Source: Escherichia phage BEU50. From it: a stretch of 64,000 nt of DNA. Made by a program: the position numbers and the translations under genes. The notes beneath the pieces were generated by a model that saw only the letters and a list, made by a program, of their open reading frames with translations, did no database searches and had not been told where the DNA came from. Location of the stretch: the sequence record OM632671.1; one strand, given 5' to 3'. Of the stretch, positions 7,188 to 28,038 are shown piece by piece (within the stretch, counting starts at the first letter, position 1; each line of letters begins with the position of its first letter).

Positions 7188-7189
7188 CT

Positions 7190-7219
7190 GTTTACTTTTC
7201 CTCTTGACTGTGGTATAAT
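7190..7219 (+). promoter_or_regulatory. T4-type early promoter
   Basis: GTTTAC, 18 nt spacer, TATAAT; upstream of regB. Confidence 0.65.
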
Positions 7220-7246
7220 TTTTCTATCAGTTAAGAGGAGAATAAC

Positions 7247-7708: not shown

Positions 7709-7715
7709 GGTAAGC

Positions 7716-8261: not shown

Positions 8262-8595
8262 AATTTTGGTTTTATGTATAGGATTAATTTCATTTTCTGC
8301 GTTAGCAGATACATCATATACTGAAATTAGAGAGTATGTAAACCGTACTGCAGCGGATTATTGCGGGAAAAATAAAGCATGCCAAGCTGAATTTGCGCAG
8401 AAATTAATATATGCATATAAAGACGGAGAAAGAGATAAATCAAGCAGATACAAAAATGATACATTGTTAAAACGATATGCTAAAAAGTGGAATACCTTAG
8501 AATGTTCAGTTGCGGAGGAGAAAGATAAAGCCGCTTGTCATTCAATGGTTGACCGTTTAGTAGATTCTTATAATCGAGGATTGAGTACTAGATGA
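8254..8595 (+). CDS. small secreted protein (vs position)
   Basis: 113 aa with N-terminal signal peptide (…FSALA). Confidence 0.5.
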   Translation: MTKILVLCIGLISFSALADTSYTEIREYVNRTAADYCGKNKACQAEFAQKLIYAYKDGERDKSSRYKNDTLLKRYAKKWNTLECSVAEEKDKAACHSMVDRLVDSYNRGLSTR

Positions 8596-9071
8596 TTGTA
8601 AAATATATCAAGGGCGATATTGTCGCCCTATTTCTTCAAGGTAATATTATTGCGCACGGGTGCAATTGCTTCCACACAATGGGCTCTGGCGTAGCAGGTC
8701 AATTAGCAAGAGCCTATCCCAAAATTTTAGAAATAGATAAAACCACTACCGAGTACGGTTCTCGTGATAAATTAGGCGATATGTCTATTGTTTTTAAACA
8801 TAGTCCTACGGGATTTGGTATATGCTATAACCTGTATACACAATACGAACCGGGTCCTAATCTTGATTATGGTGCTTTAGTAAACTGCATGATAGAATTA
8901 AATCTACAGGCAGAAACCCTTTTGTTTAAACCAGTAATTTACATTCCACGCATAGGTTGCGGTATTGCTGGTGGTGATTGGGATAAGGTTTCTAAATTAA
9001 TCGACATGTTTACTCCTGATATTGATTTAATAGTGGTGGATTATGAAAGTACATTACCCGCATCCGTTTGA
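8592..9071 (+). CDS. macro domain protein (ADP-ribose binding/hydrolase family)
   Basis: 159 aa; IAHGCNCFHTMGSGVAGQ motif typical of macro domains. Confidence 0.7.
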   Translation: MIVKYIKGDIVALFLQGNIIAHGCNCFHTMGSGVAGQLARAYPKILEIDKTTTEYGSRDKLGDMSIVFKHSPTGFGICYNLYTQYEPGPNLDYGALVNCMIELNLQAETLLFKPVIYIPRIGCGIAGGDWDKVSKLIDMFTPDIDLIVVDYESTLPASV

Positions 9072-9255
9072 TCCTAAAAACAAAGTGGAAATTATTCGTC
9101 AATGGGAACGCATTTGCCGTACTAAATGCCCAATTAATAGTCCACATGATGTAGATAAAGACTATATTGGAACATTCGTTGAATATACCTTTATTGATAG
9201 GAAAGGTCGTAAACAACATGTAGAAGAATATTGTTTAAAGGTTACATGGTTATGA
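9043..9255 (+). CDS. hypothetical small protein
   Basis: 70 aa ORF, ATG start, overlaps macro gene end. Confidence 0.35.
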   Translation: MKVHYPHPFDPKNKVEIIRQWERICRTKCPINSPHDVDKDYIGTFVEYTFIDRKGRKQHVEEYCLKVTWL

Positions 9256-9458
9256 GCCAAACTAGTATTCTTAAAAATGCCCATTGTGAAAAGTGTAAGT
9301 GGCCGATTGTTTTTGCTTTATGTAATGATGAAATGGCTTGTGATTTCGATTATTGGTGCTATTGTTCTAATAAAGGATGCATCAATCATAAAGGTGAAGG
9401 ATTTTATTCAGGATTTTATCCTTATCCTGATTTCGTTAAAGAAGGTAAACCGAAATGA
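9246..9458 (+). CDS. hypothetical Cys-rich small protein
   Basis: 70 aa from ATG 9246; CEKC…C…C…C pattern. Confidence 0.4.
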   Translation: MVMSQTSILKNAHCEKCKWPIVFALCNDEMACDFDYWCYCSNKGCINHKGEGFYSGFYPYPDFVKEGKPK

Positions 9459-9628
9459 ATAGTTTTGAGTTACAATATGAAGTGTTACGTGAGCTTGATA
9501 ATTTAATTGAACTCGCTGTCAATAAAGGTTTTGCCATTGGAATCGGTCAAAAAGATACTGGTCATTTAACTATGGAAATATTTAAGCAAAAGCGAATTAT
9601 TTTAAAACTCCTGGAAATTAATATATGA
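9455..9628 (+). CDS. hypothetical small protein
   Basis: 57 aa, ATGA overlap with upstream stop. Confidence 0.3.
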   Translation: MNSFELQYEVLRELDNLIELAVNKGFAIGIGQKDTGHLTMEIFKQKRIILKLLEINI

Positions 9629-9819
9629 GTCTGAGTAAAGAATAAAAAGATAAATTGTTTGAGCTTATCCATGAACTTCTAGATGAGCATGCAGAAGCAA
9701 ACACCTTTTATGATGAATACGGCCCGCTATCTCCCGAACAGCAAGAAGAATTTGCTGATCGGTTTGATAAGAAAGAAAACGAATTAATAGCTTATGTGAA
9801 TATGCTTTAAGAAGGTGAT

Positions 9820-10401
9820 ATGGCGAGTTTAATTTTTACTTACGCAGCAATGAATGCTGGAAAATCTGCTTCTCTTTTGACTGCTGCACATAATTATAAA
9901 GAACGCGGAATGAGTGTATTAGTTCTTAAGCCTGCTATTGATACTCGCGATTCTGTCTGTGAAGTCGTTTCTCGCATTGGAATTAAGCAGGAAGCGAATA
10001 TTATTACAGATGATATGGATATTTTCGAGTTCTATAAATGGGCTGAAGCACAAAAAGATATTCATTGCGTATTTGTAGATGAAGCTCAGTTTTTAAAAAC
10101 TGAACAGGTGCATCAATTAAGTCGAATTGTTGATACATATAATGTTCCTGTTATGGCTTATGGATTAAGGACTGATTTCGCTGGAAAATTGTTTGAAGGT
10201 TCTAAAGAACTTTTAGCGATTGCAGATAAACTTATTGAACTAAAGGCAGTTTGTCATTGCGGCAAAAAAGCGATTATGACAGCTCGATTAATGGAAGATG
10301 GAACACCAGTTAAAGAAGGTAATCAAATCTGTATTGGTGATGAAATTTATGTTTCTTTGTGTAGAAAACATTGGAACGAATTAACTAAAAAGCTCGGTTA
10401 G
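9820..10401 (+). CDS. tk: thymidine kinase
   Basis: 193 aa; P-loop AAMNAGKS; C-terminal Cys cluster. Confidence 0.9.
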   Translation: MASLIFTYAAMNAGKSASLLTAAHNYKERGMSVLVLKPAIDTRDSVCEVVSRIGIKQEANIITDDMDIFEFYKWAEAQKDIHCVFVDEAQFLKTEQVHQLSRIVDTYNVPVMAYGLRTDFAGKLFEGSKELLAIADKLIELKAVCHCGKKAIMTARLMEDGTPVKEGNQICIGDEIYVSLCRKHWNELTKKLG

Positions 10402-10443
10402 TGCAAAAGTTATAAATAGGTTTATCTAACTAAAGGGGTATAT

Positions 10444-10656
10444 ATGCTACAATTAACTGAAAAGCAACTTCGCAATCTTACTGTTCTTCAATTAGATGAA
10501 ATTCGTAGGGAAGTTGGAAATATCATTTCAGCTTTGCGTCGAGAAGTATCACTCAACCAATCTCCGGCAGACTATACTAGATTGCGAAATTTTGAAAAAT
10601 ACCTTGATAAAGTTAAGGCCGTGCATCGGCATAAAGTAAATACAGGACAAAAATGA
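10444..10656 (+). CDS. hypothetical small protein
   Basis: 70 aa ORF in tk-nrdC region. Confidence 0.45.
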
Positions 10657-10668
10657 TAGGAGGCCTTT

Positions 10669-10962
10669 ATGGCCTTAAAAGCAACGGCACTATTTGCCAT
10701 GCTAGGATTAGCGTTTGCTTTATCTCCATCGATTGAAGCGAATGTCGATCCTCATTTTGATAAATTTATGGAATCTGGTATTAGACACGTTTATATGCTT
10801 TTTGAAAATAAAAGCGTAGAATCATCTGAACAGTTCTATAGTTTTATGCGAACGACTTATAAAAATGACCCGTGCTCTTCTGATTTTGAATGTATAGAGC
10901 GAGGCGCGGAGATGGCACAATCATACGCTAGAATTATGAACATTAAATTGGAGACTGAATGA
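10669..10962 (+). CDS. hypothetical secreted small protein
   Basis: 97 aa, RBS AGGAGG, N-terminal signal peptide. Confidence 0.5.
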   Translation: MALKATALFAMLGLAFALSPSIEANVDPHFDKFMESGIRHVYMLFENKSVESSEQFYSFMRTTYKNDPCSSDFECIERGAEMAQSYARIMNIKLETE

Positions 10963-11345
10963 AATTCAGCGACTTTTCACAAAGTGGAAAACCTTCAAAG
11001 GCAGATGAATACTTAGGTTTATTAATGGCTGCACAAGCTTATTTTCATTCTGCGCATTTTGAAACTAAAAGTTATGCTAGACACAAAGCATACGATTTTA
11101 TTTTCTCCGAGTTGCCAGATTTGATTGATAAATTTGGTGAGCAATATTTGGGGTATTCTGGTAGAAAATACACACCTTCAATTCCAGATGCTAGTAAACT
11201 TCCTACCGACACAATTAAAATGATTGATCGCATACTAGACCAATCTAACAGCATTTATAAAGAAATGCCTCCAGCCATTCAAAGCACGATAGATGATATC
11301 ACTGGGATGTTTTATCAGAGTAAATATCTTCTTTCCCTCGAATAA
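10959..11345 (+). CDS. hypothetical protein
   Basis: 128 aa ORF, overlapping start with upstream stop. Confidence 0.5.
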
Positions 11346-11350
11346 CGTTA

Positions 11351-11372
11351 GTCTCCTTCGGGAGACTTTTTT
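11351..11372 (+). terminator. rho-independent terminator GTCTCC-TTCG-GGAGAC plus T6
   Basis: perfect hairpin followed by TTTTTT. Confidence 0.7.
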
Positions 11373-11382
11373 CATTTTACCG

Positions 11383-11412
11383 GTTTACTTTCCATTTGAG
11401 CTGTGATACTAT
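11383..11412 (+). promoter_or_regulatory. T4-type early promoter
   Basis: GTTTAC, about 18 nt, TACTAT. Confidence 0.55.
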
Positions 11413-11440
11413 ACAACCATCGGATAAAGAGGAGAACATC

Positions 11441-11629
11441 ATGAAAATTGAAGCACTTAATCAAGAAGGAAATATCTACGTCATCATTAATGGTGATTTT
11501 TTCGTCGACATGGATGAAGTTACCAGTGAAGAACTTGTAGAACTTCTTAAGAAACGTTATAATATGTGTGATGAAGTTGCAACTCACATGGCGTGTGCAA
11601 TATTCTCTCTTTCATATGTGGTGGAATAA
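11441..11629 (+). CDS. hypothetical small protein
   Basis: 62 aa from ATG 11441 with RBS AAGAGGAG. Confidence 0.45.
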
Positions 11630-11645
11630 TGAAAACTGAAAAGCA
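11620..11645 (+). repeat. 26 nt direct repeat copy 1 (GGTGGAATAATGAAAACTGAAAAGCA)
   Basis: identical 26-mer spanning stop/RBS/start; second copy at 12010. Confidence 0.8.
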
Positions 11646-11832
11646 AGCGGATAAAATTAAGGAATTAGTGGCTTCAATTCGTAAAGCAGATGAAGAGCTG
11701 ATTGACTTTGCTTGGTATTCATCGGGTATTTCGAATAAAGGCATTAAAGACTTTGAAACTAAAGTTGATAATGCTTTAGAAGCGTTAGATATGTTTCTTG
11801 ATGAAATTATCGATCATAATACGAGAGTTTAA
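11629..11832 (+). CDS. hypothetical small protein (MKTEKQ start)
   Basis: 67 aa from ATG inside the 26 nt repeat. Confidence 0.45.
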   Translation: MKTEKQADKIKELVASIRKADEELIDFAWYSSGISNKGIKDFETKVDNALEALDMFLDEIIDHNTRV

Positions 11833-11834
11833 GT

Positions 11835-12029
11835 ATGCTAACACGTGAACAGTTTGAAAAAATCATTAAATTAGCACGTGATGTTGAAATAGATTCATAT
11901 CAATTAGCAGTTGAGCATTGTGAAGGATATTCATACGATGGTATAGAATCAGCTAAAAGGGATTTGGATAAATCTAAAGCTAAGTTAGTCCAATATCTTG
12001 AAATGATTAGGTGGAATAATGAAAACTGA
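11835..12029 (+). CDS. hypothetical small protein
   Basis: 64 aa ORF. Confidence 0.45.
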   Translation: MLTREQFEKIIKLARDVEIDSYQLAVEHCEGYSYDGIESAKRDLDKSKAKLVQYLEMIRWNNEN

Positions 12030-12035
12030 AAAGCA
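12010..12035 (+). repeat. 26 nt direct repeat copy 2
   Basis: identical to 11620-11645. Confidence 0.8.
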
Positions 12036-12192
12036 GATGTTTTTAATGAAACTAATTGAAGAATATGCTAATGCAGTTTCTGACTATGAGCGTTCTTCTC
12101 GGGAAAGAGGTACAGCTTTCGCCAAAGAAGAAATGAAAATCATGGTTGATGCTCACACAAAGCTTCAGAATTTTATTGAAAACAACATTTAA
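12019..12192 (+). CDS. hypothetical small protein (MKTEKQ start)
   Basis: 57 aa from ATG inside repeat copy 2. Confidence 0.35.
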   Translation: MKTEKQMFLMKLIEEYANAVSDYERSSRERGTAFAKEEMKIMVDAHTKLQNFIENNI

Positions 12193-12194
12193 CG

Positions 12195-12224
12195 GTTTAC
12201 AAGTTGGCAAGGTTATGGTATAGT
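12195..12224 (+). promoter_or_regulatory. T4-type early promoter
   Basis: GTTTAC, 18 nt, TATAGT. Confidence 0.55.
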
Positions 12225-12359
12225 AATCTTGTCAACTGTCAAGGAGAAGAGAATGAAAGTTTTGTTTGTTGTGTATGTAATGATTCAATATAATTACCCA
12301 ATGTTTACTTATAATCTGGTGAACAACATTATTGATATTATTCAAAGGAGTATGTAATT

Positions 12360-12590
12360 GTGAGTGAGTCGAAGAGAATCAATATGAAACGATTAGTATT
12401 AGAAGTTAGTCCGCTTTTTGGTGAATTGGCTATAGAAAAAGTAAATAACATGTATCGTTTGACGCAAGAAGACGATATGCTATATTTTACGCCTAGTGAA
12501 ATCATTCATTTAACCCAAATTGAATATCCTTATACTGATAAAATAGTAAGTATCAATGATGAGCACAAAATTCATTGCTCGTTTGATTGA
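12360..12590 (+). CDS. hypothetical small protein
   Basis: 76 aa; GTG start 8 nt after AAGGAG (alternative ATG at 12384). Confidence 0.4.
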   Translation: MSESKRINMKRLVLEVSPLFGELAIEKVNNMYRLTQEDDMLYFTPSEIIHLTQIEYPYTDKIVSINDEHKIHCSFD

Positions 12591-12680
12591 AGTTGAAGCC
12601 CAAATTGCAGAACACACCAAATTGTTAAAAGCTCTTAATGCAAAAGCAAATGGTTTACGTAATGCTATTGAGGTATTGAA

Positions 12681-12995
12681 ATGAAAAAGCGTCTATTAGA
12701 AGACATTGCAGCTTCAAGTAATTCCAGTTTAATTAAAATTATTATGGCCGGTGAAGAAGACGATCTGGAAATGCGTGGAAAGATTTATGGTTGTGATGAT
12801 TATAGCAGCCCTATTAATTGGGATTCTGTAATGGTCATGGTTGAACGTCGCGAAAGGGCTTCTAAAAACGTTCCTAATTGCCCTGAATGTGGAACTGAAC
12901 AGGTGCAATTAGTCCATTGGCAGACTAATAATCTTCGTTATAAATGTCGCCATTGTAAACACCGATTTGACCGAGAAGAAAATGACAAAGCGTAA
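12681..12995 (+). CDS. hypothetical zinc-ribbon protein
   Basis: 104 aa; CPECG…CRHCKH. Confidence 0.5.
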
Positions 12996-13224
12996 AGAAT
13001 ATATGGAGACCGCCGAAAAGGCAGTCCGTGAATTAGCAATAGCTTATTATAATGAACACGGTAAATTTCCTGATAGATACAGCGTGCTTAAATCTGCTTT
13101 AACTCGTTCATATAAAAATATGCTATCAGAAGTAAGTGATATTATATACAAACATAAAGAACAAACGGGCCAAAGTCTTGATTACGACGAGACTTTTAAA
13201 CAAGTACTAGGAATTAAGGAATAA
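12982..13224 (+). CDS. hypothetical small protein
   Basis: 80 aa from ATG 12982. Confidence 0.45.
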
Positions 13225-13225
13225 T

Positions 13226-13489
13226 ATGTTTAAAGTATATGGTTATGATAGCAACATCCATAAATGTGTGTATTGCGATAATGCAAAACGTCTTTTGACC
13301 GTGAAGAAACAGCCGTTTGAATTTATCAACATTATGCCGGAAAAAGGTGTTTTTGATGATGAGAAAATCGCTGAGCTTCTGACTAAACTAGGTCGTGATA
13401 CTCAAATCGGCTTAACAATGCCTCAGGTATTTGCTCCTGATGGAAGTCATATTGGTGGATTTGACCAATTGCGGGAATACTTTAAATGA
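13226..13489 (+). CDS. nrdC: glutaredoxin/thioredoxin NrdC
   Basis: 87 aa; CVYC active site. Confidence 0.85.
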   Translation: MFKVYGYDSNIHKCVYCDNAKRLLTVKKQPFEFINIMPEKGVFDDEKIAELLTKLGRDTQIGLTMPQVFAPDGSHIGGFDQLREYFK

Positions 13490-13701
13490 TTCTCGAAGGA
13501 ACTGATTATATCCATGATTACCGCGGAAGCGCGGTATATGTAGGTGATGAAGTTGCAGTTTACTACGGGTATGGAACTTTGATGACAGCCAAGGTTATTC
13601 AAATTAAAAATAATCGTGCTAAACTCGAAGTTTATTATTCTAACGGCGAAAAGTCTATTTCTAAGTGGAAATACGGCGATTGTATGGTCAAACTGGGGTA
13701 A
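13486..13701 (+). CDS. hypothetical small protein
   Basis: 71 aa, ATGA overlap with nrdC stop. Confidence 0.45.
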   Translation: MILEGTDYIHDYRGSAVYVGDEVAVYYGYGTLMTAKVIQIKNNRAKLEVYYSNGEKSISKWKYGDCMVKLG

Positions 13702-13703
13702 AT

Positions 13704-13874
13704 ATGATTTACGATATTAGTGCAGCAAGAGCTCCATCAATGGTTGCTATTCCAGCTGAAGAATTAGATCGTCTTCATAAAATTGAAGAACTTCTGTGGG
13801 AAATTGAATCTGATTTGCCATCAGGATTAGAATCCTGGATTGATTATGAAGAACTTAATAAGCTTCGGGGTTAA
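13704..13874 (+). CDS. hypothetical small protein
   Basis: 56 aa from first ATG of the 13665 ORF. Confidence 0.3.
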   Translation: MIYDISAARAPSMVAIPAEELDRLHKIEELLWEIESDLPSGLESWIDYEELNKLRG

Positions 13875-13996
13875 ACCCTGGTGGGCGGCTAGATGGGAAA
13901 CTGTAGAGCCAGAGCCGGAAGAACCGGTTTACACTGATGAAGAAACAGTATATAATGAACCAACGATAAATGACTTAATTGATATGGAGATGGGAC

Positions 13997-14482
13997 ATGA
14001 TTACAGTAGATAAGTGGTTTAGAATTAATCGTGTTGATACAGGGCTATGTAATTACTGGCCGGAACTTAGTGCAGGTACTGTCTTTAAAGTTCGTGAACT
14101 TGCAAAAGAATGTGAAGATGATATAGAACCTGATACTGGAATTATTGAAATTGAACTTTCTGATGGAAAGATTATTAACATCTATGATAAGCCAATTACG
14201 TATTGGTGCTTGTGGAATACTGAATCCGTTGAAAATGGCGAAATTGAAGAAGTTGTAGAGAGAACTAGCCAAGATGCTCAGAAGCCTAAAGCCGCTTTTC
14301 AAGGTGAACGTATTTCATACGCATTAGCTAAATTAGCTGCACAAGAAAATAACGATGGTTATGAAGGAAATTTAATGCAAGCTGCCGCAGAGTACATTGA
14401 ATGGCTTGAAACTCAAATTTCTTTTTCTGACCAAATGATTCGGCAATATAAGCGATTGCATCAAATGTTTTACAATACTTGA
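13997..14482 (+). CDS. pin: Pin-like protein (protease inhibitor position)
   Basis: 161 aa from ATG 13997 with RBS GGAGA; length and position match T4 pin. Confidence 0.55.
   Translation: MITVDKWFRINRVDTGLCNYWPELSAGTVFKVRELAKECEDDIEPDTGIIEIELSDGKIINIYDKPITYWCLWNTESVENGEIEEVVERTSQDAQKPKAAFQGERISYALAKLAAQENNDGYEGNLMQAAAEYIEWLETQISFSDQMIRQYKRLHQMFYNT
14408..14482 (+). repeat. direct repeat copy A (3-prime end of pin)
   Basis: two sub-blocks (26 nt and 48 nt) recur at 14483-14510 and 14648-14695. Confidence 0.75.
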
Positions 14483-14695
14483 AAAAACTCAAAATTCTTT
14501 TTCTGACAAGGCATTTTAATGAAAACCGAATTGGTTTATACTGAAAAGTTAAATGGCGGTAAGGTTTGGAAACTTTTTATTAAAGGACATTCTACGGACC
14601 CTCATATGACCACTTGCGTAGGAACCTATTCTCGTCCTACTAAAAAGATGATTCGACAGTATAAACGATTGCATCGAATGTTTTACAATACTTAA
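14483..14695 (+). repeat. direct repeat copy B flanking a 58-codon ORF
   Basis: AAAAACTCAAAATTCTTTTTCTGACA at 14483 and ATGATTCG…TACAATACTTAA at 14648. Confidence 0.75.
14519..14695 (+). CDS. hypothetical small protein sharing Pin C-terminal 15 aa
   Basis: 58 aa ending MIRQYKRLHRMFYNT, the same tail as the pin ORF. Confidence 0.4.
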   Translation: MKTELVYTEKLNGGKVWKLFIKGHSTDPHMTTCVGTYSRPTKKMIRQYKRLHRMFYNT

Positions 14696-14704
14696 ATAAT
14701 AAAT

Positions 14705-14735
14705 ACCCTTATCTATTTAAGGTAAGGGTTTTATT
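14705..14735 (+). terminator. hairpin plus T-run before gene 49
   Basis: ACCCTTA … TAAGGGT stem followed by TTTTATT. Confidence 0.5.
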
Positions 14736-15209
14736 ATGTTATTGACTGGCAAATTATACAAAGAAGAAAAACAAAAATTTTATAATGTACAAAACGGTAA
14801 ATGCTTAATTTGCCAACGAGAACTAAATCCTGATGTTCAAGCTAATCACCTTGACCATGACCATGAATTAAATGGACCAAAAGCAGGAAAGGTACGTGGA
14901 TTGCTTTGTAATCTCTGCAATGCTGCAGAAGGTCAAATGAAGCACAAATTTAATCGTTCTGGCTTAAAGGGTCAAGGTGTTGATTATCTTGAATGGTTAG
15001 AAAATTTACTTACTTATTTAAAATCCGATTACACCCAAAATAATATTCACCCTAACTTTGTTGGAGATAAATCAAAGGAATTTTCTCGTTTAGGAAAAGA
15101 GGAAATGATGGCCGAGATGCTTCAAAGTGGATTTGAATATAATGAATCTGACACCAAAACACAATTAATAGCTTCATTTAAGAAGCAGCTTAGAAAGAGT
15201 TTAAAATGA
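14736..15209 (+). CDS. 49: endonuclease VII (Holliday junction resolvase)
   Basis: 157 aa; CLICQ…CNLC zinc site plus HLDHDHE. Confidence 0.85.
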   Translation: MLLTGKLYKEEKQKFYNVQNGKCLICQRELNPDVQANHLDHDHELNGPKAGKVRGLLCNLCNAAEGQMKHKFNRSGLKGQGVDYLEWLENLLTYLKSDYTQNNIHPNFVGDKSKEFSRLGKEEMMAEMLQSGFEYNESDTKTQLIASFKKQLRKSLK

Positions 15210-16027
15210 ATGTAGTATATAAACTATCATTTATTAATAGAATTAATGCTAAAACCCCACCATATTATTACATTGGAAGTAAAACCAATTGCACTTTTGA
15301 TGGAACGAATATTATTGATAAAAATGGTAAATTTTATTATTCGTCTTCGTCATCTTCTGAATTTCAAAAAGCCTTATTGAAAGAAACGCCGAAAGTTGAA
15401 ATATTATATTTTCAATTAGTCGGAGATGAACAAATAACTAGCATTGAAGCTGAATTTCAAAAGAATATAGAAAAAGATGTATGGAATAAAGAGTATTTTA
15501 ATTTAGCATATGCTGATGGCAAATTTACGACATATGGTATTTCTCCTTCTAAAGAAACTAGAGAAAAGCAATCAATAACCATGATTAAAAGAAATCGTAA
15601 TAAAGGCAAAAATCATGGATTTTATGGAAAGCATCATACTAATTTAGCTAGAAAGAAAATATCAGAAGCTTCTAAAAAATACTGGAAAGAAAATCCACAT
15701 CGTGGATTTTCGCATACAAAGGAAGCTAAAATTAAAATTGGAATTTCATCTTCTATCAGGCATAAAGGAAGTGGAAATCCGATGTATGGTGTAAAACCTT
15801 GGAAAACTCCGAGCGCAATTAAATCTGGTACTTGTATATTATGGTTAAAATACGCAGAAATTTTATATGATTATTTAAGTCCAGATTTTAAAAGTAAATC
15901 ATCTATTTTTGCGGATTTAAACTTACCGAAATTTAGAATTGATAATTTCATCAAAAGGTTTAAAATGGGTTGGAACCCATATTTAGACGAAGAATTTCAA
16001 AAGGATAAATTAGAATTATGTCTTTAG
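15206..16027 (+). CDS. GIY-YIG/NUMOD-type homing endonuclease-like protein (seg-like)
   Basis: 273 aa; VVYKLS…YYYIGSK and repeated GxxHT/NPMYG NUMOD-like motifs; inserted between 49 and nrdD. Confidence 0.6.
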   Translation: MNVVYKLSFINRINAKTPPYYYIGSKTNCTFDGTNIIDKNGKFYYSSSSSSEFQKALLKETPKVEILYFQLVGDEQITSIEAEFQKNIEKDVWNKEYFNLAYADGKFTTYGISPSKETREKQSITMIKRNRNKGKNHGFYGKHHTNLARKKISEASKKYWKENPHRGFSHTKEAKIKIGISSSIRHKGSGNPMYGVKPWKTPSAIKSGTCILWLKYAEILYDYLSPDFKSKSSIFADLNLPKFRIDNFIKRFKMGWNPYLDEEFQKDKLELCL

Positions 16028-17016
16028 AAAAAGATGTTTTAAATTTTATTTCAAATAAAGATAAAGAATTAAATACAGAAAACGCCAACAAAGATTCTCG
16101 CGTCTTTCCAACAAAAAGAGATTTAATGGCCGGTATTGTTTCTAAACATATCGCTTGTCGTATTCTTCCAAGTCATATTGTAAATGCCCATAATGTTGGA
16201 TTAATTCATTTTCATGATTTAGATTACAGTATATCATTGCCTTTTACTAATTGCTGTTTAGTAGATTTAAAAGGAATGCTTGAGAACGGGTTTAAGCTCG
16301 GTAATGCACAGATTGAAACTCCTAAATCAATCGGTGTTGCTACTGCAATTATGGCACAAATTACTGCACAGGTTGCTTCTCACCAATATGGCGGAACTAC
16401 ATTTGCTAATGTCGATAAAGTACTTTCTCCTTATGTTAAACGCACCTATGCAAAACATATCGAAGACGCAGAAAAATGGCAAATCGCCGATGCGTTAAAT
16501 TATGCTCAATCTAAAACAGAAAAAGACGTATACGATGCATTCCAAGCTTATGAATATGAAGTAAATACTCTCTTTAGTTCAAACGGACAGACTCCTTTTG
16601 TAACAATTACATTTGGTACAGGAACTGACTGGACTGAACGAATGATTCAGAAAGCAATTCTGAAAAATCGTATTAAAGGTCTTGGTCGTGATGGGATAAC
16701 TCCTATTTTCCCTAAGCTTGTTATGTTTGTTGAAGAAGGTGTTAATCTTTATAAAGACGATCCGAACTATGATATTAAGCAGCTTGCTCTAGAGTGTGCA
16801 AGCAAAAGAATGTATCCTGATATTATTTCAGCTAAGAACAATAAAGCTATCACTGGTTCATCTGTTCCTGTTTCTCCAATGGGTTGCCGTAGTTTCTTGG
16901 GCGTATGGAAAGATTCGACTGGTAATGAAATTCTTGATGGACGTAATAATCTTGGCGTTGTAACACTGAATCTTCCTCGCATCGCGTTAGATTCTTATAT
17001 TGGAACACAGTTCAAT
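16018..17016 (+). pseudogene. nrdD: anaerobic ribonucleotide reductase NrdD, 3-prime truncated (N-terminal ~333 codons only)
   Basis: NrdD-like sequence to …[17 protein letters not shown]; remainder of the ORF to 17103 is reverse complement of gene 37 start; no glycyl-radical C-terminus. Confidence 0.8.
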
Positions 17017-17150
17017 CCTGAGTCATCTTTTGTGAAAATTGTTTTATCTTTTAAGTTTATAGCCAATTCACCTTCGGCTAATACTGAAGCAGCAGGACGT
17101 TGACCTGCAGTTTTGCTTCTTTTAAATTGTATTTGTTTTAAAGTAGCCAT
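16995..17150 (-). pseudogene. 37: long tail fibre distal subunit gene 37, 51-codon N-terminal stub
   Basis: [13 protein letters not shown]…TKDDSG then LNCVPI-stop; gp37-like only to codon 45. Confidence 0.75.
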
Positions 17151-17158
17151 AAGTCCTC

Positions 17159-17809
17159 TTAATAATAGCCGAAATCTTGAACAGAATCCTTAATTACGAT
17201 TTGGTCAAATCGTGGAACGTGTGAAGGTTGAGATGCAGGATTCTGTGAAAAAAGGTTTGGCGCAGTTAAATTTCCTGTCATAGTGTCTCCAGAGCGTAAT
17301 ACCCTAGAGTTTGCATTTGCTGTAACAGTATTTATTGCTCCATCAACATAATCTTTACGAGTAGCATCTGATGCTGCGGAAGGAGTAGATGTAACAGTTA
17401 CAGATGGAGCCGTTACAGCTTTGGTAAATGTTGTCAAACCTTCTGGCGTAATAGTAATTTGTCCAGTAGTGATTTCACTACCTGCTGGTCTAAAACTAAT
17501 ACCGCCAGAAGAGCCACCAACTACAAGAGTATTACCAGTGCCGCCACCAGAACGAATTCGGATGGGGGTTTCATTATTACTTAATTGAAGATAACTATTT
17601 ACACCATAATTAATAGTAACTGGGCCTGTGTAAGTACCACCAGTAGATTTAGAAACGAAATCATTATCAGCTGCCTGTGGTTTATTATATTCTGAATATA
17701 TTTTAAATGATTTGTAGAGTACATCGTCACCGGCTGAATTCAACGGAAAATTTCCTTGATGCCAAATGACAGATCCACCTACAGTTGAACCTCCTTTTAA
17801 ATCAGCCAT
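17159..17809 (-). CDS. 36: long tail fibre subunit gp36
   Basis: 216 aa; N- and C-termini match gp36 as recalled. Confidence 0.9.
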
Positions 17810-17832
17810 AGTATGCCCATTTATTTTAATAT

Positions 17833-17840
17833 TATTTATA
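17833..17840 (-). promoter_or_regulatory. late promoter TATAAATA
   Basis: TATAAATA on minus strand 24 nt upstream of gene 36 ATG. Confidence 0.6.
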
Positions 17841-17842
17841 AA

Positions 17843-17866
17843 GAAAAAAGGAGCCCGGCGGCTCCC
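17843..17866 (-). terminator. hairpin GGAGCC-GCCG-GGCTCC plus T6 (minus strand)
   Basis: between gene 35 stop and gene 36 late promoter. Confidence 0.6.
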
Positions 17867-17871
17867 TCAGT

Positions 17872-18987
17872 TTAAACTTCTCTAAATTCCTGTCCAAACA
17901 CTTTACCAGTTTTAGACGATGCCTGTGTAGGAAGTACCATTATATCTGGAGGTGAAGCCGATTCACAGACATAATTAACGCGAATACCATTGACGCCAAA
18001 TTCGGCAGGTTTTGAAATGCCGCCATTTCTTGATACTTCAGAAAAGCTTAAATTTCTCATACCGCCTTGACCCGCTTGGGCGGTTCTCTGTGTGTATATC
18101 GTAAATCCTACTGCATTTTCAGGAACAACTACATAATCTTCTTTTAATTCCCAAGACCCAGCTTGCCCAGTAAACTCAGCTTGGGTCGAGGAAATATATC
18201 CATTTGATGCATCATAAAAACGAATAGATATATTTGCAGTTCCAAGATCAAGTAAATCAGCATCAGCATATAGTTGTGCTTTAAGATAAAGAACATCACC
18301 AGGAATTAAATTGTAGTCAGAAAGTTTACTTATAGCAGCTGAAGTTGGTAAACGCGCAATTTCATTATTAGTTCCACCAACCGCAGACATAAATTGCTCA
18401 ACGCTTTCGTATGTTCTTTTAGGAAATCCTGTAGCTCCGACGTCTTCTAAACTATCAAATACAACATCTAAAATAGTTTGATAATCATCTGTGCTTTTTC
18501 TATTACTTAGTTTAACATGCTCTAATGCAATAGCTCTTTTAGAAGAAGTATAAAAAGCAGCATATGACACGTCAAATCTTGACAATACTGAATCTGATGG
18601 AAAAACTGAAGTTCCTGCTCCCCTTAACCAAGATACCACTTCAGGAGGAAAATTAACCTTTCCGCTAGTTAATATAGCAACAAGTCTATTGTTTGACAAA
18701 GAATTCATGAAACTGACAAAAGTGGTAGATGTTGTATTGTTTGAAGCAGAAAAAGCATATGACTTACTATCAACTAATGCTCCCGTAGAAGGGTCAAAAA
18801 CTCTTAAATGAAGACCTGCACTAAATGTTTGATTTCCAACGGGATTATCCTGAAATTTAACATATGGTCCCGCAGTAGAAAGCGGGCAAGAACCCGCTAT
18901 GCTTATTTTATATCTTACTGAATTGCTTTCCGATAAAAATGGCGTTTGGACATATCCTTGTCCAAACTCTGCCATAAATTTTTCCAT
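17872..18987 (-). CDS. 35: long tail fibre hinge protein gp35
   Basis: 371 aa; position and length. Confidence 0.85.
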   Translation of the reverse strand: MEKFMAEFGQGYVQTPFLSESNSVRYKISIAGSCPLSTAGPYVKFQDNPVGNQTFSAGLHLRVFDPSTGALVDSKSYAFSASNNTTSTTFVSFMNSLSNNRLVAILTSGKVNFPPEVVSWLRGAGTSVFPSDSVLSRFDVSYAAFYTSSKRAIALEHVKLSNRKSTDDYQTILDVVFDSLEDVGATGFPKRTYESVEQFMSAVGGTNNEIARLPTSAAISKLSDYNLIPGDVLYLKAQLYADADLLDLGTANISIRFYDASNGYISSTQAEFTGQAGSWELKEDYVVVPENAVGFTIYTQRTAQAGQGGMRNLSFSEVSRNGGISKPAEFGVNGIRVNYVCESASPPDIMVLPTQASSKTGKVFGQEFREV

Positions 18988-18995
18988 AATACCTC

Positions 18996-21900
18996 TTATT
19001 CAACCCATTCAAATTTAACAGTTTTATTCACTGGGTCAGGAATAATGCGAACATTACCAATTCGTAAGAAATCACGAATAGTAAGATTACCTATTATTCC
19101 ATTATCAGATGGGATTGCTCCTATATCCGAAGGTTGAGGAGGATTACCTCCATCGAATACCTGAACAAAACTTGACCAAGAGTTTTTGGTTTTCTGCCAT
19201 GTACGTGTCCAGCGAGTGGTACGTGCTTCTGGGGTCGTTGGATAAGTAATCCAATCTTGGTAAAGTGAATCAAGTGTGTTACCAAACTGAGTCAATGTAC
19301 CAGGAGATTTAACTTCTTCACCGCGTTCTAAATATGGAAGTCCAGTCACTTCATTAGTTTTTTCAACCATTTTAAAATAACCCGGGAACTGGTTATAAGT
19401 GGCTGAATCATTAATATCGATTGACCAGAATCCTACAGTATCAGATGTTGGCGCACGGGTATATAAATCAGATGTTTTAACACCTTGAGAACGAATTCTC
19501 GAGTTAACAGTTAAACCGCCTGAACTTATAGTAGCACCTTTTGCAATGATTAAGCTTTCACCAATCGTTACTTGGCCAGATGCATTATTAATAGATAAAG
19601 GACGTAATCCATTAAATCCGCCAGTTTGATCACCCGATGCAGTAAGCATAAAATTCGTTACTGACCCATCATTGCGAACAATGAAACCATAATTTCCGTT
19701 AATAGCACGGAAAGCATTTGCGCTTCGAGAAATAATTTCACCAGTTGCAGTGACTGAATTACCAAATGTTGCTACACCATTTGCATTCAATGTTCCTGAA
19801 GCATTAACATTTATCGGTGTTACTGTACCGTTGATATTAAATGTTATATTTCCAGCTTTATTACGCTGAGAATAAAAATGACTAGACGTTTCATCACTAA
19901 CTTCAAATACGGTAGAACGTGTTGTGTCTGATTCCCCACTAAATTGATTTCCCCACACTCTGACTGTCATCGTTTGAGCCGGGTTTGTTCCAGTTTGAGG
20001 TCCTTTCTCAAAAATCAATCGAGTTGCCGTTCCAGTATTAGAAATAGTTAATGTACTATTTGCTGAAACTGATCCACCGAATGTAGCAGTACTAGATGAT
20101 ACAAGAGGGGCACTCAGATTCGTTTGTTGGGTTAAGGTTAGTGAACCATTAACTGTTTGTGCAATGTCCCTACGAATGAACTGGAGCGAATCTAGACCAT
20201 CTAATAAATTACTATCTACAGCTTTTGCTTTTAATGGCAAATAATTTGCTAATACGCGATTTAATTCATATGGTGATACTGCATAACCATTTTTCTCATA
20301 TGATTCTAATGGTTGTGTTGAACCTACCGTATCATTACCAACGAATGTAATTGAACCAGATGAAGTTTTAACAAACCCTCTTATCAGAGTAGTTGCTGCC
20401 CAAGTTGGTTCACTCTGCACAATCCATTTTAAATTTTTTGGAGATACAGCAGTATTTGCTGATGTTCCAGTCACAGTTTCAGACTGAGTTGCAACTTTAA
20501 TAACACCTTCCTGTGCTTCAGTAGATTTAGTACCTAAAAGCTTTTTAGGAGTTATTAAAACATTATCTAATGTTCCTGCAGCAGCTTCAACTTGTGTAGC
20601 TACACGAAGTGTACCACGCTGTGTCTCATTTGCTTCAAGAATATTAAGTGTATAATGGTCCCAGAGAGTTCCTGATTCAACTAATCCAGATAGAGCAACA
20701 ACAGAAGTACGATCAGTACTATTAAATCTAGTTTTAATTTTTAATGGTGTAGAGATGCGAGTATCGTCGACGCCTGCGTCGAATTCAACTTGCGTAGCAA
20801 TTTCAGCTATACCACTTAAACTTTCAGTTGCTCTACGGTCATTTAAAGTTTTAGGAGTGACTGCACGAGTATAGTCAGTTCCTGTGTTAACTTCACTTTG
20901 CGTAGCAATTTCAATTAAACCAATTCTTCCATCAGTTGATGTCTTTTTATGTAACGTTTCTGGCGTTACAACCGCATTTGCCCATCCTTCTTGGCTTTGT
21001 CCAGCAATTACTTCACTTTCAACTGCTAAAATTACTGCGCCTTGTTGCGTTGGAGTAGCTTTATACTGATCCAAAGCTTTAGGTGAAACAACTAAATTAT
21101 TAGTGTTTTTATTATAAACATTCGTACCATTTAATTCACGGCTAGAAGCTGGAGTAGCTCCTGCAGTAGATACATAAGTTACAATACCAGATAATGATTC
21201 AGAACCTTGGCGAGCTTGAAGCTTTTTAGGAGTGATGATTGTAGTATCATCAGTACCTGTATTAGTTTCCTGCTGCGTAGCAATTTCAGCGACACCTCTA
21301 CGAGTTTCTGTAGCAGTTCTTTCATTCAGCTTTTTAGGAGTGATGATAAGGTCATCTGCAAAAGAGAATGTGGTGTTCTGATTCACTTGAGCAGTAGTTG
21401 CTATTCTTGCAATACCTCTGCGAGTTTCTGTAGCAGTACGATTAGCTAACGTTTCTGGAGTAATTGCTAATTCTTTTTGTGGAGAATTTTCTAAATCAGC
21501 ATTTGCTTGAGCTTGCGTAGCTAAAGCAATTACGCCTAATCTTGCTCTAGTAGAAGCATTTAAAGAGTCTACTCTTTCTACAGTTGGAACGTTTTGCTGT
21601 ACAACCCAGCATTTTCCATCAGAATCTTCTATATAAGCAAGTTGTAAAACTGGAACATAATTAGTTTCACCGTTAAAAACTAATTCTTGAACTGTTACCC
21701 ATTCAGCTTCAGGCGGATATTCTGAACGTTTTGGGAATTGCAGCAATTGAACTGAGGAAGCAATTTTATCTTCACCTGCAGCTTTGATTTTAACTGTTTG
21801 TCCTTTTCTCATGTAATTCATGGAAATTTTAACAGTATCACCAACAGAAATATCAGTCGGAAGCTGAAGTTCAATTGTTTGGGTTGTTCCATTATTCGCG

Positions 21901-22865
21901 CCAAATACCATGACTTCTTCATTTGGACGAATATTAGAATTAGTTGTTATAATGCGTAAACGTGCTTTACTATCCCCGTCAAACAATCTCCACAATTTCT
22001 CATTATCATCAAACATCAAGAAACCGTCAATCGATGTACGGCCTTCAATGGAATGAGTTCCAACTTCTTGCACTGACGTTGTTTCATCATATGTCGTAAC
22101 AATTGTATGATAAAGTGGATTTAATTTATCTAAATCAACGAAATTAATGATATCTCCATGATTGGCAAATCTTGGAAGCTTAACATTAATCGGCGCGGCA
22201 GAAGTAAATCTACGTACGATAAAATCATTAGATTGTGCTTGATATGCAGTCGATGGAGTAACAATCGCAGCTTCTCTGCTATAATCAGCAATATACATTT
22301 GCCACAAACGATTATTAAAAATGAATACCATCTGTGACTTTGGATGAGTCATTAAAACTGAACGTACCTGTTCACCTCTAAAATTGACAATACTCTGATT
22401 TGAAGAATTTATTTTAACCTGATTTATGCCAGGTTTTCCACCGATATCTTGAATTATTACGGTTTCTCCATCAAGCGGAGAAGGTGGTAAAGTAAACTCA
22501 ATGTCATTGCCAACTGATGTATCTACTGAAATTGCTTCTCCGGATTTTAATTGATATGGTCCAGATGATACGGTTGTATATACAGCATCAGTACGTAATG
22601 CTTTCCAACGAATTCTATTAAAATTTCCAGCAGGTTTTGGAATATTATCCGTTGCTGCCCAAAAACGATTATTATAAATGATTACAAAATCTTTTAAATA
22701 TCCACGAGTTGGATCATATTGCTGAACTGTGTTTTCTTGAATTAAGTAATCAACGTTAACACCGTCAGTTCCTACGGTACGATCAGCTAAAGCTACGTTG
22801 ATTATTTTATCGCCACCTGCGTCCAGACCATCTTCTGCTCTGAACTTTCTTTTAATCTCGGCCAT
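18996..22865 (-). CDS. 34: long tail fibre proximal subunit gp34
   Basis: 1289 aa with internal repeats; divergent from rnh. Confidence 0.9.
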   Translation of the reverse strand: MAEIKRKFRAEDGLDAGGDKIINVALADRTVGTDGVNVDYLIQENTVQQYDPTRGYLKDFVIIYNNRFWAATDNIPKPAGNFNRIRWKALRTDAVYTTVSSGPYQLKSGEAISVDTSVGNDIEFTLPPSPLDGETVIIQDIGGKPGINQVKINSSNQSIVNFRGEQVRSVLMTHPKSQMVFIFNNRLWQMYIADYSREAAIVTPSTAYQAQSNDFIVRRFTSAAPINVKLPRFANHGDIINFVDLDKLNPLYHTIVTTYDETTSVQEVGTHSIEGRTSIDGFLMFDDNEKLWRLFDGDSKARLRIITTNSNIRPNEEVMVFGANNGTTQTIELQLPTDISVGDTVKISMNYMRKGQTVKIKAAGEDKIASSVQLLQFPKRSEYPPEAEWVTVQELVFNGETNYVPVLQLAYIEDSDGKCWVVQQNVPTVERVDSLNASTRARLGVIALATQAQANADLENSPQKELAITPETLANRTATETRRGIARIATTAQVNQNTTFSFADDLIITPKKLNERTATETRRGVAEIATQQETNTGTDDTTIITPKKLQARQGSESLSGIVTYVSTAGATPASSRELNGTNVYNKNTNNLVVSPKALDQYKATPTQQGAVILAVESEVIAGQSQEGWANAVVTPETLHKKTSTDGRIGLIEIATQSEVNTGTDYTRAVTPKTLNDRRATESLSGIAEIATQVEFDAGVDDTRISTPLKIKTRFNSTDRTSVVALSGLVESGTLWDHYTLNILEANETQRGTLRVATQVEAAAGTLDNVLITPKKLLGTKSTEAQEGVIKVATQSETVTGTSANTAVSPKNLKWIVQSEPTWAATTLIRGFVKTSSGSITFVGNDTVGSTQPLESYEKNGYAVSPYELNRVLANYLPLKAKAVDSNLLDGLDSLQFIRRDIAQTVNGSLTLTQQTNLSAPLVSSSTATFGGSVSANSTLTISNTGTATRLIFEKGPQTGTNPAQTMTVRVWGNQFSGESDTTRSTVFEVSDETSSHFYSQRNKAGNITFNINGTVTPINVNASGTLNANGVATFGNSVTATGEIISRSANAFRAINGNYGFIVRNDGSVTNFMLTASGDQTGGFNGLRPLSINNASGQVTIGESLIIAKGATISSGGLTVNSRIRSQGVKTSDLYTRAPTSDTVGFWSIDINDSATYNQFPGYFKMVEKTNEVTGLPYLERGEEVKSPGTLTQFGNTLDSLYQDWITYPTTPEARTTRWTRTWQKTKNSWSSFVQVFDGGNPPQPSDIGAIPSDNGIIGNLTIRDFLRIGNVRIIPDPVNKTVKFEWVE

Positions 22866-22899
22866 TCTCCCGGGCTCCTATTGTGTTTTCAATAATAAG

Positions 22900-22907
22900 T
22901 ATTTATA
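22900..22907 (-). promoter_or_regulatory. late promoter TATAAATA
   Basis: 35 nt upstream of gene 34 ATG on minus strand. Confidence 0.65.
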
Positions 22908-22910
22908 CTT

Positions 22911-22940
22911 GTTTACTTTAAGATTTAGATAGTATATAAT
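22911..22940 (+). promoter_or_regulatory. T4-type early promoter
   Basis: GTTTAC, 18 nt, TATAAT upstream of rnh; -10 flanked by AGATTT/AAATCT dyad. Confidence 0.65.
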
Positions 22941-22969
22941 AGAAATCTCACTAATTGAACGAGGTTCAT

Positions 22970-23887
22970 ATGGATTTAGAAATGATGTTGGATGAAGATT
23001 ACAAAGAAGGAATTTGCTTAATTGACTTTAGTCAGATTGCGCTTTCAACTGCTCTGGTAAACTTCCCAGATAAAGAAAAAATTAATTTATCAATGGTTCG
23101 TCATTTGATATTGAACTCAATTAAGTTTAATGTCAAAAAAGCAAAAACGCTTGGATACACTAAAATTGTGCTGTGTATTGATAACGCGAAATCTGGATAC
23201 TGGCGTCGTGATTTTGCTTATTATTATAAGAAAAACCGTGGAAAAGCACGAGAAGAATCTACTTGGGACTGGGAAGGTTATTTTGAATCCAGCCATAAAG
23301 TTATAGATGAATTGAAAGCTTATATGCCATACATTGTTATGGATATTGATAAGTATGAAGCAGATGACCACATTGCTGTTCTTGTTAAAAAGTTCTCTTT
23401 AGAAGGACATAAGATTTTAATCATTTCATCGGATGGTGACTTTACACAGCTTCACAAATATCCAAATGTTAAGCAATGGTCACCGATGCATAAGAAATGG
23501 GTTAAAATTAAAAGCGGTTCTGCTGAAATTGACTGTATGACTAAAATCCTTAAAGGCGACAAAAAGGATAACGTTGCTTCAGTTAAAGTACGATCTGACT
23601 TTTGGTTTACCAAAGTTGAAGGTGAACGGACTCCTTCAATGAAAACTTCAATCGTTGAAGCTATTGCTAATGATCGTGAGCAAGCTAAGGTGCTTCTCAC
23701 AGAATCTGAATATAATCGTTATAAAGAAAATTTAGTTCTAATTGATTTTGATTATATTCCTGATAATATTGCTTCAAACATTGTGAATTACTATAATTCA
23801 TATAAATTACCACCGCGTGGCAAAATTTATTCATATTTTGTAAAAGCGGGTCTTTCTAAATTAACTAATAGCATTAATGAATTTTGA
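22970..23887 (+). CDS. rnh: RNase H / 5-prime-3-prime exonuclease (FEN family)
   Basis: 305 aa from ATG 22970 (MDLEMML…) with RBS GAGG. Confidence 0.9.
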   Translation: MDLEMMLDEDYKEGICLIDFSQIALSTALVNFPDKEKINLSMVRHLILNSIKFNVKKAKTLGYTKIVLCIDNAKSGYWRRDFAYYYKKNRGKAREESTWDWEGYFESSHKVIDELKAYMPYIVMDIDKYEADDHIAVLVKKFSLEGHKILIISSDGDFTQLHKYPNVKQWSPMHKKWVKIKSGSAEIDCMTKILKGDKKDNVASVKVRSDFWFTKVEGERTPSMKTSIVEAIANDREQAKVLLTESEYNRYKENLVLIDFDYIPDNIASNIVNYYNSYKLPPRGKIYSYFVKAGLSKLTNSINEF

Positions 23888-23895
23888 GGTGAATA

Positions 23896-24165
23896 ATGGC
23901 TAAAAAAGAAATGGTTGAATTTGATGAAGCTATCCATGGCGAAGACTTGGCTAAATTTATTAAAGAAGCATCTGATCATAAACTGAAAATTTCCGGTTAT
24001 AATGAACTGATTAAAGATATTCGAATTCGTGCTAAAGATGAACTTGGCGTTGATGGTAAGATGTTTAATCGTCTATTAGCTTTGTATCATAAAGATAACC
24101 GTGATGTGTTTGAAGCTGAAACTGAAGAGGTAGTTGAACTTTATGACACAGTTTTCTCTAAATGA
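23896..24165 (+). CDS. dsbA: dsDNA-binding protein DsbA
   Basis: 89 aa, position between rnh and 33. Confidence 0.8.
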   Translation: MAKKEMVEFDEAIHGEDLAKFIKEASDHKLKISGYNELIKDIRIRAKDELGVDGKMFNRLLALYHKDNRDVFEAETEEVVELYDTVFSK

Positions 24166-24481
24166 CATTCGTCCGGTCGATGAGACCGGTCTTTCAGAAA
24201 AAGAACTTTCAATTAAGAAAGAAAAGGATGAAATAGCAAAGCTTCTTGATCGTCAAGAAAATGGATTTATTATTGAAAAAATGGTAGAAGAGTTTGGAAT
24301 GAGTTATCTTGAAGCTACAACAGCATTCTTAGAAGAAAATTCTATTCCTGAAACTCAATTTGCTAAATTTATTCCTTCGGGTATAATTGAAAAAATTCAG
24401 TCAGAAGCTATTGACGAAAATCTTTTACGTCCTTCTGTTGTTCGTTGTGAAAAAACTAATACATTAGATTTTCTACTATGA
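24143..24481 (+). CDS. 33: late transcription accessory protein gp33
   Basis: 112 aa from ATG 24143 (MTQFSLNDI…). Confidence 0.85.
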   Translation: MTQFSLNDIRPVDETGLSEKELSIKKEKDEIAKLLDRQENGFIIEKMVEEFGMSYLEATTAFLEENSIPETQFAKFIPSGIIEKIQSEAIDENLLRPSVVRCEKTNTLDFLL

Positions 24482-24537
24482 TTAAACTCCGCATGCCTGC
24501 TGGTGGTGAAAGATACATTGATGGTAAATCAGTTTAG
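24478..24537 (+). pseudogene. 59: helicase loader gene 59, 19-codon N-terminal stub
   Basis: [19 protein letters not shown] then TAG; downstream sequence is not gene 59. Confidence 0.6.
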
Positions 24538-24620
24538 TGAGTATTTTGATAATAAAATTTCTACAGTTAAAACTTCTTCTGATTGTTACTATGATATTAC
24601 TGTTTTGACGGAAAAACAAT

Positions 24621-24947
24621 ATGTTGAATTATCACCGCGCGGGCCGTCTATGCCGGGTAGTGAATAAATATAAATCCGACTTTGATGTTAATATTCACCG
24701 TGGTACATTTTGGGGAAATTACGTCGGTAAAGATGCTGGCAGCCGGGAGGCTGCCATTGAATTATTCAAAAAAGATTTTATACGTCGAATTAAATCCGGA
24801 GAAATAACTAAAGCACATTTAGAGCCTTTACGTGGAATGAGGCTAGGATGCACATGTAAACCAAAGCCGTGTCATGGTGATATAATAGCTCATATAGTTA
24901 ACCGACTGTTTAAAGACGATTTTCAAGTTGAGGACTTATGCAATTAA
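24621..24947 (+). CDS. hypothetical protein with C-terminal C-x-C…CHGD motif
   Basis: 108 aa ORF upstream of nrdA; GC-rich 5-prime patch; true start uncertain. Confidence 0.45.
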
Positions 24948-27202: not shown

Positions 27203-27253
27203 TATAATTTGACTCATGGACGAGTCACTATCTATTAACTAAGTGGAAAATTT

Positions 27254-27915: not shown

Positions 27916-28038
27916 GTATCTTTTGCGTAAAATGCGCCTTTAAACGGTAACGTTTATCGAAAACTCCTTTAATTGCTGGAAAGTCCTTTATAGGAAAACT
28001 AGCAGCCAAGGTTTTGCTTGCACCTTTAATTAGTATAA

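Follow-up and report, generated by a model that had tools for sequence, protein, structure and literature searches.

When the first half of one conserved phage gene runs directly into the antisense of another, does the junction record an event in the life of the phage or an event in the handling of its sequence? This question is raised by a 64,000-nucleotide stretch of DNA from Escherichia phage BEU50 (record OM632671.1), referred to here in its entirety as the window, in which nrdD, encoding the large subunit of the anaerobic ribonucleotide reductase, is cut short between positions 17016 and 17017 and abuts the 5' end of gene 37, encoding a tail fibre. The analysis of this locus suggests, with a probability of roughly 85%, that the window is composite (chimeric) in origin and does not show how the genome of a functioning phage is arranged. 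What carries this interpretation is directly observed: a block structure, differing parentage of the blocks, joints that are blunt and private to this record, a loss of essential genes, and round block lengths.

The position of the break can be given to the base. Megablast comparison of positions 15900-17900, and of the narrower interval 16900-17140, with 50,697 phage records places it exactly at 17016|17017 (joint J2, a blunt seam), with nrdD on the left and the 5' end of gene 37 on the right. Up to base 17016 the best match of the nrdD side is PTE-Eco15 (97.9% identity), while to the right lie the first 134 nucleotides (nt) of gene 37, including 124 nt that are 100% identical in many Tequatrovirus genomes; the alignment of Shigella phage SHFML-26 to the gene 37 side begins at 17017. 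Local BLAST against T4 bears out the same break, in that window 16556-17016 corresponds to T4 44814 descending to 44354 (nrdD) and window 17016-17363 to T4 156676 descending to 156329 (genes 37 and 36). A first-pass annotation, made from the letters of the sequence, had placed the end of NrdD similarity at about 17016 and had held that both similarities stop at a single base, as they indeed do.

Consistent with the nucleotide comparisons, tblastn searches with intact relatives recover only residues 1-333 of the 605 residues of NrdD (the alignment drifts to 340) and only residues 1-45 of the 1024 residues of gp37, together with a complete gp36. The NRDD profile of Pfam is likewise matched at positions 1-293 of 562 only. 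Gp38, holin t, NrdG and the C-terminus of NrdD were sought by tblastn across the whole window and not found, nor were any NrdD residues beyond approximately 333-340 such as an exon resuming downstream would provide. Tblastn, Pfam and the T4 alignments thus agree with the earlier observation that the gene 37 body, gene 38 and the glycyl-radical half of NrdD are missing from the window, and genes 36, 35 and 34 do stand intact next to the gene 37 remnant, as had been described. The intact genes 37 and 38 that adjoin gene 36 in a functional genome are not found.

Two chimeric open reading frames (ORFs) extend across the seam, and both were confirmed to be present. The first, of 361 amino acids (16018-17103, plus strand), consists of NrdD residues 1-333 followed by 28 residues from gene 37 antisense, one fewer than the approximately 29 codons that had been assigned to the reverse complement of gene 37. 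The second, of 51 amino acids (16995-17150, minus strand), had been taken as a 51-codon gene 37 stub; it is gp37-like over residues 1-45, its other 6 residues being nrdD antisense, and it matches no Pfam family. Both genes had further been described as cut mid-codon. This applies to gene 37, whose fragment (17017-17150, minus strand) comprises codons 1-44 and 2 nt of codon 45, but not to nrdD, whose intron-less 5' fragment (16018-17016, plus strand) ends on a codon boundary after Asn333, its 999 nt making up codons 1-333 of 605. The best explanation of both short ORFs would be accidental read-through over the seam, without function.

On the gene 37 side, the cut coincides with a boundary in sequence conservation. 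The N-terminal block of gene 37 that is invariant among T4, SHFML-26 and EC.W14-2 ends at codon 45, and the gene 37 sequence in the window ends at the first polymorphic base past this block, a base that is A in T4, C in SHFML-26 and T in EC.W14-2. The record of the last of these, the Tequatrovirus Escherichia phage EC.W14-2 (PQ860993.1), is labelled a 'complete genome', circular and 116,473 bp long, compared with a normal length of ~168 kb; it was rejected as a possible source, its tail-fibre locus being intact, with genes 37 and 38 whole, and it may itself be incomplete or mis-assembled.

The geometry of J2 differs from that first proposed. In all T4-like genomes nrdD and gene 37 occupy opposite strands, and both flanks of J2 retain their reference orientation: in Shinka both lie on the minus strand, at ~42.9 kb and ~149.3 kb, and in T4 both are found in descending coordinates. 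An inversion was therefore rejected, and with it the description of two genes joined head to head in opposite orientation. Instead, J2 has the geometry of a collinear skip, of ~56.6 kb in T4 and ~55.7 kb in Shinka, between flanks of the same lineage (SHFML-26-like, 97.8% and 98.8%), the same orientation and the same order, as an illegitimate deletion within a single genome would leave them. On the T4 map the skip removes positions 1-44353 and 156677-168903, an interval that holds rIIA/B, 39, 60, 52, dda, 56, 61, 41, uvsX, 42, 43, regA, 62, 44, 45, 46, 47, 55 and nrdG, in addition to the gene 37 body, 38, t, asiA and motA. Many of the genes skipped in the window, in this interval and at gene 32, are reportedly essential in T4 (T4 genome review of Miller et al. 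2003).

Discontinuous coding similarity is also a property of nrdD in T4, in which a group I intron with I-TevII interrupts the gene, but the resemblance ends there. The nrdD fragment as a whole corresponds to T4 46325 descending to 44354 with the intron skipped, the T4 gap from 45850 to 44814 being closed at window 16553/16556, and what lies past 17016 is antisense gene 37 and not an intron. An nrdD intron or homing-endonuclease insertion was accordingly rejected as the source of the break, given the absence of the T4 intron, the location of the intron site ~460 bp upstream, and the lack of any Rfam family, and hence of any recognized structured RNA, anywhere in the window.

Examination of the whole window revealed that J2 is not the single breakpoint it had been taken for, but one of four equally blunt and equally private joints within the first 24.5 kb (6156|6157, 12576|12577, 17016|17017 and 24536|24537). 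As determined by tblastn and T4 mapping, each joint cuts two genes internally, leaving eight truncated genes altogether. At joint J1 (6156-6157), Mosigvirus rIIA, cut within codon 679 of 737, meets residues 31-120 of Tequatrovirus vs.6 (GrcA-like); at J1b (12576-12577), residues 1-72 of the 185 of mobD.1 meet residues 275-309 of the 309 of nrdC.3; and at J3 (24536-24537), gene 59, cut in codon 20 of 217, meets nrdA.2, cut in codon 45 of 87, so that residues 1-19 of gp59 and 46-87 of nrdA.2 remain. J1b skips 8.7 kb of SHFML-26, equivalent to a jump of 8.6 kb on the T4 map, and J3 skips ~6 kb comprising 59, segG, 32, frd and td, thereby taking out gene 32. J1b, J2 and J3 share a collinear, deletion-type geometry, whereas J1 is not collinear with the T4 map.

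The four joints delimit five blocks which, when the window is mapped on T4 and on closer relatives, all have the same orientation relative to the T4 map. Block A (1-6156, plus) is of Mosigvirus type, matching a20 at 98.8% as a single piece and T4 at 68-78%, and carries a fused gp39/60 topoisomerase, a homing endonuclease, a 366-residue ORF, rIIA.1 and the 5' 92% of rIIA. The next three blocks are of Tequatrovirus type. Block B1 (6157-12576, plus; 6420 bp), extending from truncated vs.6 to tk, rI and truncated mobD.1, matches SHFML-26 at 98.5% in one high-scoring segment pair (HSP) and T4 63828 descending to 57624 at 91-94%. Block B2 (12577-17016, plus; 4440 bp), extending from truncated nrdC.3 to nrdC, pin, 49, a homing endonuclease gene and truncated nrdD, matches SHFML-26 at 97.8%, PTE-Eco15 at 97.9% and T4 49045 descending to 44354 at 84-97%. 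Block C (17017-24536, minus; 7520 bp), with truncated 37, 36, 35 and 34 on the minus strand and rnh, dsbA, 33 and truncated 59 on the plus strand, matches SHFML-26 at 98.8% across 100% of its length, T4 at ~92%, and the Mosigvirus FL18 at just 77-81%.

Block D (24537-64000, plus) returns to Mosigvirus, running from truncated nrdA.2 through nrdA and nrdB onward to genes 24 and 23. It matches FL18 at 97.8-98.1%, including an HSP of 27.4 kb, KAW3E185 at 98.1% as a single piece over window 44000-64000, and T4 at 69-82% beyond nrdA. Because block D is internally collinear with Mosigvirus genomes, the anomalies are limited to the first 24.5 kb. Taken as a series, the blocks stand in the order A-B1-B2-C-D, compared with a circular order of B1-B2-A-C-D in T4, with T4-map jumps of 8.6, ~56.6 and 6 kb between them; the core order of T4 is thus not preserved. 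Each of the three interior blocks (6420, 4440 and 7520 bp) is a multiple of 20 in length, a coincidence with a chance of ~1e-3 at most after 1-nt ambiguities at three of the joints are allowed for, and the blocks diverge by 1-2% from any deposited genome.

Base-level alignment to both parents demonstrates that all four joints are blunt, with 0-1 nt shared and an abrupt switch of parent, and that the partner flanks are mutually dissimilar in every case. Such joints, lacking flank similarity, exclude both homologous recombination and joining through k-mer overlap; specifically, none of the four parent switches falls at homologous positions with similarity across the crossover, as those of a homologous mosaic would. 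Reading-frame phases at the joints, as judged by tblastn, are arbitrary. A search of the joints for repeats, direct or inverted, for the ends of transposons and for sites of site-specific recombination was negative, and no vector, marker or scar sequence was detected there.

The joints are, moreover, private to this record. Among matching phage records in INPHARED, J2 is spanned by none of 873 with the query 15900-17900 and by none of 854 with the query 16900-17140; J1b is spanned by 0 of 507, and no related record, of the 507-1142 available per joint, spans any of the four. A natural deletion variant was rejected on these grounds. The 35-mers over all four joints are absent from IMG/VR, and that over J2 is absent as well from JGI metagenome contigs and from GTDB genomes (100,044-species set); searches with the J2 flanks in E. 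coli complete genomes and in plasmids gave no match. Consistent with this, all eight independent natural contexts shown that carry a topoisomerase identical to that of block A, drawn from isolates and metagenome scaffolds, continue through a full 737-residue rIIA to rIIB, ndd, 52 and motA. The exact fusion proteins are also not on record in public assemblies, a negative that carries little weight since the intact gp36, gp49 and gp35 used as controls are unrecorded too. Four private joints linking source genomes of two genera are what a composite assembly would be expected to contain.

Under the composite interpretation, three fragments of one SHFML-26-like Tequatrovirus would have been spliced end to end between two a20/FL18-like Mosigvirus fragments, and J2 would be the seam of the second and third Tequatrovirus fragments, which natively lie ~55-57 kb apart. 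The splicing may have arisen through mis-assembly, scaffolding or concatenation of a mixed-phage sample, or through other in-silico handling, and it would then have taken place during assembly or such handling and not in a replicating genome. As to the kind of handling, the round block lengths favour in-silico manipulation, while the end of block C favours assembly fragments: this block ends at the first polymorphic base, and the assembly graph of a mixed-strain sample would therefore branch there.

Comparison with chimeric contigs assembled from mixed, related phages yields a similar division. Shared with such contigs are the private joints, the alternation of two co-occurring genomes, the truncated genes, the lack of outside support and, for one block of the window, an end at a conserved/variable boundary where the assembly graph branches. 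Typical de Bruijn chimeras, however, are syntenic and switch inside shared sequence, whereas the window joins non-homologous loci bluntly in blocks of round length, a pattern that points less to the traversal of a graph than to concatenation or splicing in silico.

Several observations sit uneasily with a composite origin. The five blocks share a uniform orientation, for which the chance is 1/16 if fragments were randomly oriented, and which fits better with deletions in a real molecule or with a reference-oriented scaffold than with random ligation. A mis-join in a de Bruijn graph ordinarily requires a k-mer common to both sides, which all four joints lack; a plain mis-join of this type, against which the bluntness of the joints speaks, was rejected for want of common sequence. 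The round lengths and the unitig-like end of block C, in turn, each suggest an artefact of another kind. The public assembly index lacks the exact Tequatrovirus proteins of the window, which weakens the negative result for the fusion proteins.

The main alternative holds that the window derives from a real but defective Mosigvirus x Tequatrovirus hybrid, produced in a mixed infection by several illegitimate events of a non-homologous end-joining or topoisomerase type, in which case the nrdD/37 junction would be the genuine endpoint of a ~56-kb deletion, and replication and packaging would depend on an intact co-infecting helper phage. The uniform orientation of the blocks, the simple collinear deletions that J1b, J2 and J3 describe on the T4 map, and the blunt, homology-free joints that illegitimate recombination yields would all suit such a hybrid, and headful packaging of the T4 type would tolerate a shortened genome. 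The opportunity for a mixed infection can likewise be found in the phage records, according to which sewage and faecal samples contain the two parental genera side by side and both infect the same hosts. Nonetheless, the hybrid is judged improbable: it would require four independent illegitimate events in 24.5 kb, two of which also switch genus; J1 is not collinear; the genes for the replisome, the late sigma factor, the single-stranded DNA-binding protein, the holin, the distal fibre and the adhesin are gone from the joints and the window; no other genome or contig in the collections searched shares the joints; and biology gives no reason to expect every block length to be divisible by 20.

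Recombination known from T4-like phages provides a further measure. Viable T4 deletions, in the rII region and between 39 and 56, remove a few kb to ~10 kb of non-essential DNA; classical illegitimate deletions of this kind resemble J1b, J2 and J3 in their collinear geometry and in having little or no homology at their endpoints, yet they are small compared with the ~56 kb, replisome included, skipped at J2. The distal tail-fibre locus of T-even phages is reported by Tetart et al. 1998 to be exchanged modularly, by recombination at conserved motifs in gene 37, and the break in the window does fall at the end of the invariant codons 1-45, the natural 5' boundary of the exchangeable cassette; such exchange, however, proceeds through two-sided homology and delivers a functional cassette of 37 body and 38, whereas in the window the partner is nrdD antisense and no adhesin is present. 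Documented T4-like recombinants are likewise homologous and syntenic: the bred epsilon-squared phages, which form plaques, are full-length mosaics of ancestor stretches (PMC8614997). Though they resemble the window in combining stretches from different ancestor phages in one sequence, these recombinants switch parents at homologous positions, while in the window the switches fall where there is no homology and essential genes are lost. The stronger proposal that the junction is real, and marks an inter-genus hybrid formed by homology-independent end joining that persists as a helper-dependent, headful-packaged parasite of T4-like phages, is considered very improbable. Were it true, the junction would attest both to homology-independent joining between two T4-like genera and to a helper-dependent defective genome, for neither of which, to our knowledge, is there a precedent in T4-like phages.

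Still less credible is a complete and viable but rearranged genome whose missing parts (the 37 body, 38, the 3' half of nrdD, rIIB, 32 and the replisome) lie outside the window, which would make the joints borders of translocations. Such a possibility draws on the fact that only 64 kb of the source is visible, and that the region is rich in genes for homing endonucleases, enzymes that promote local rearrangement. Wherever the missing parts might be, however, nrdD, 37, rIIA, vs.6, mobD.1, nrdC.3, 59 and nrdA.2 stay split mid-gene, and a split gene 37 could make no distal tail fibre; core gene order is conserved in all reference genomes examined, no related record spans the joints, and the I-TevII intron site, the closest endonuclease target known in nrdD, lies ~460 bp upstream of J2. 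Least credible of all is an engineered construct, that is, a T4-like phage hybrid or deletion derivative built in the laboratory. Round lengths and clean blunt joints are compatible with design, but no joint keeps a reading frame or a gene boundary, essential genes are destroyed, the joints contain neither vector, marker or scar nor a recombination site, and blocks 1-2% removed from any deposited genome are unlike builds from laboratory strains.

Apart from its joints, the window holds several features of the parental phages. In block A, within positions 55-2672, the Mosigvirus large topoisomerase subunit is a single protein of 606 residues that shows neither a gene 39/60 split nor a gene-60 bypass. 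Its 3' end is overlapped by a NUMOD3 homing endonuclease (1860-2672) that is absent in two of the eight contexts with an identical topoisomerase (L013, L016), while the 366-residue ORF between topoisomerase and rIIA.1 (2715-3815, plus), which matches no Pfam family, is kept in all Mosigvirus contexts shown. In block B2, a free-standing gene for a NUMOD3-motif homing endonuclease of 273 residues (15206-16027, plus) lies between gene 49 and nrdD; present in PTE-Eco15 and many relatives and not in T4 or SHFML-26, it is a normal variable feature. The same block contains a 52-nt direct repeat, 88% identical (14435-14486 and 14648-14699), through which the 3' end of pin is duplicated at the end of a 58-residue ORF (14519-14695), the two proteins having the C-terminal motif MIRQYKRLH(Q/R)MFYNT in common. 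Since SHFML-26 annotates an ORF at the same place, this ORF is regarded as a natural feature.

Block D contributes three further observations. The nrdA.2/nrdA stretch at 24537-27198 is ~97.8% identical to both T4 and FL18, as against 69-82% to T4 in the rest of the block, and has the appearance of a segment exchanged naturally, and recently, by Tequatrovirus and Mosigvirus. In the nrdA-nrdB interval (27209-28623), a 1.6-kb ORF of FL18 (L006 10573-13048) is absent from the window and a divergent segment lies within nrdB, a difference that probably reflects the presence or absence of a homing endonuclease or intron. Finally, an ORF of 330 residues (35090-36082, plus), situated between the cd.x genes and cd in a stretch without T4 counterpart, contains a full-length DAHP synthetase I domain (Pfam, E=6e-75); FL18 annotates an equivalent gene, and the phage is thus predicted to carry a gene for the enzyme with which the shikimate pathway begins.

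Taken together, the data on J2 and its companion joints argue for a composite sequence, and the practical value of recognizing it is one of quality control. At least the first 24.5 kb of the source record ought to be handled as chimeric, and neither the shortened nrdD nor the stub of gene 37 nor the pair of fusion ORFs to which they give rise should be annotated or read as biology.

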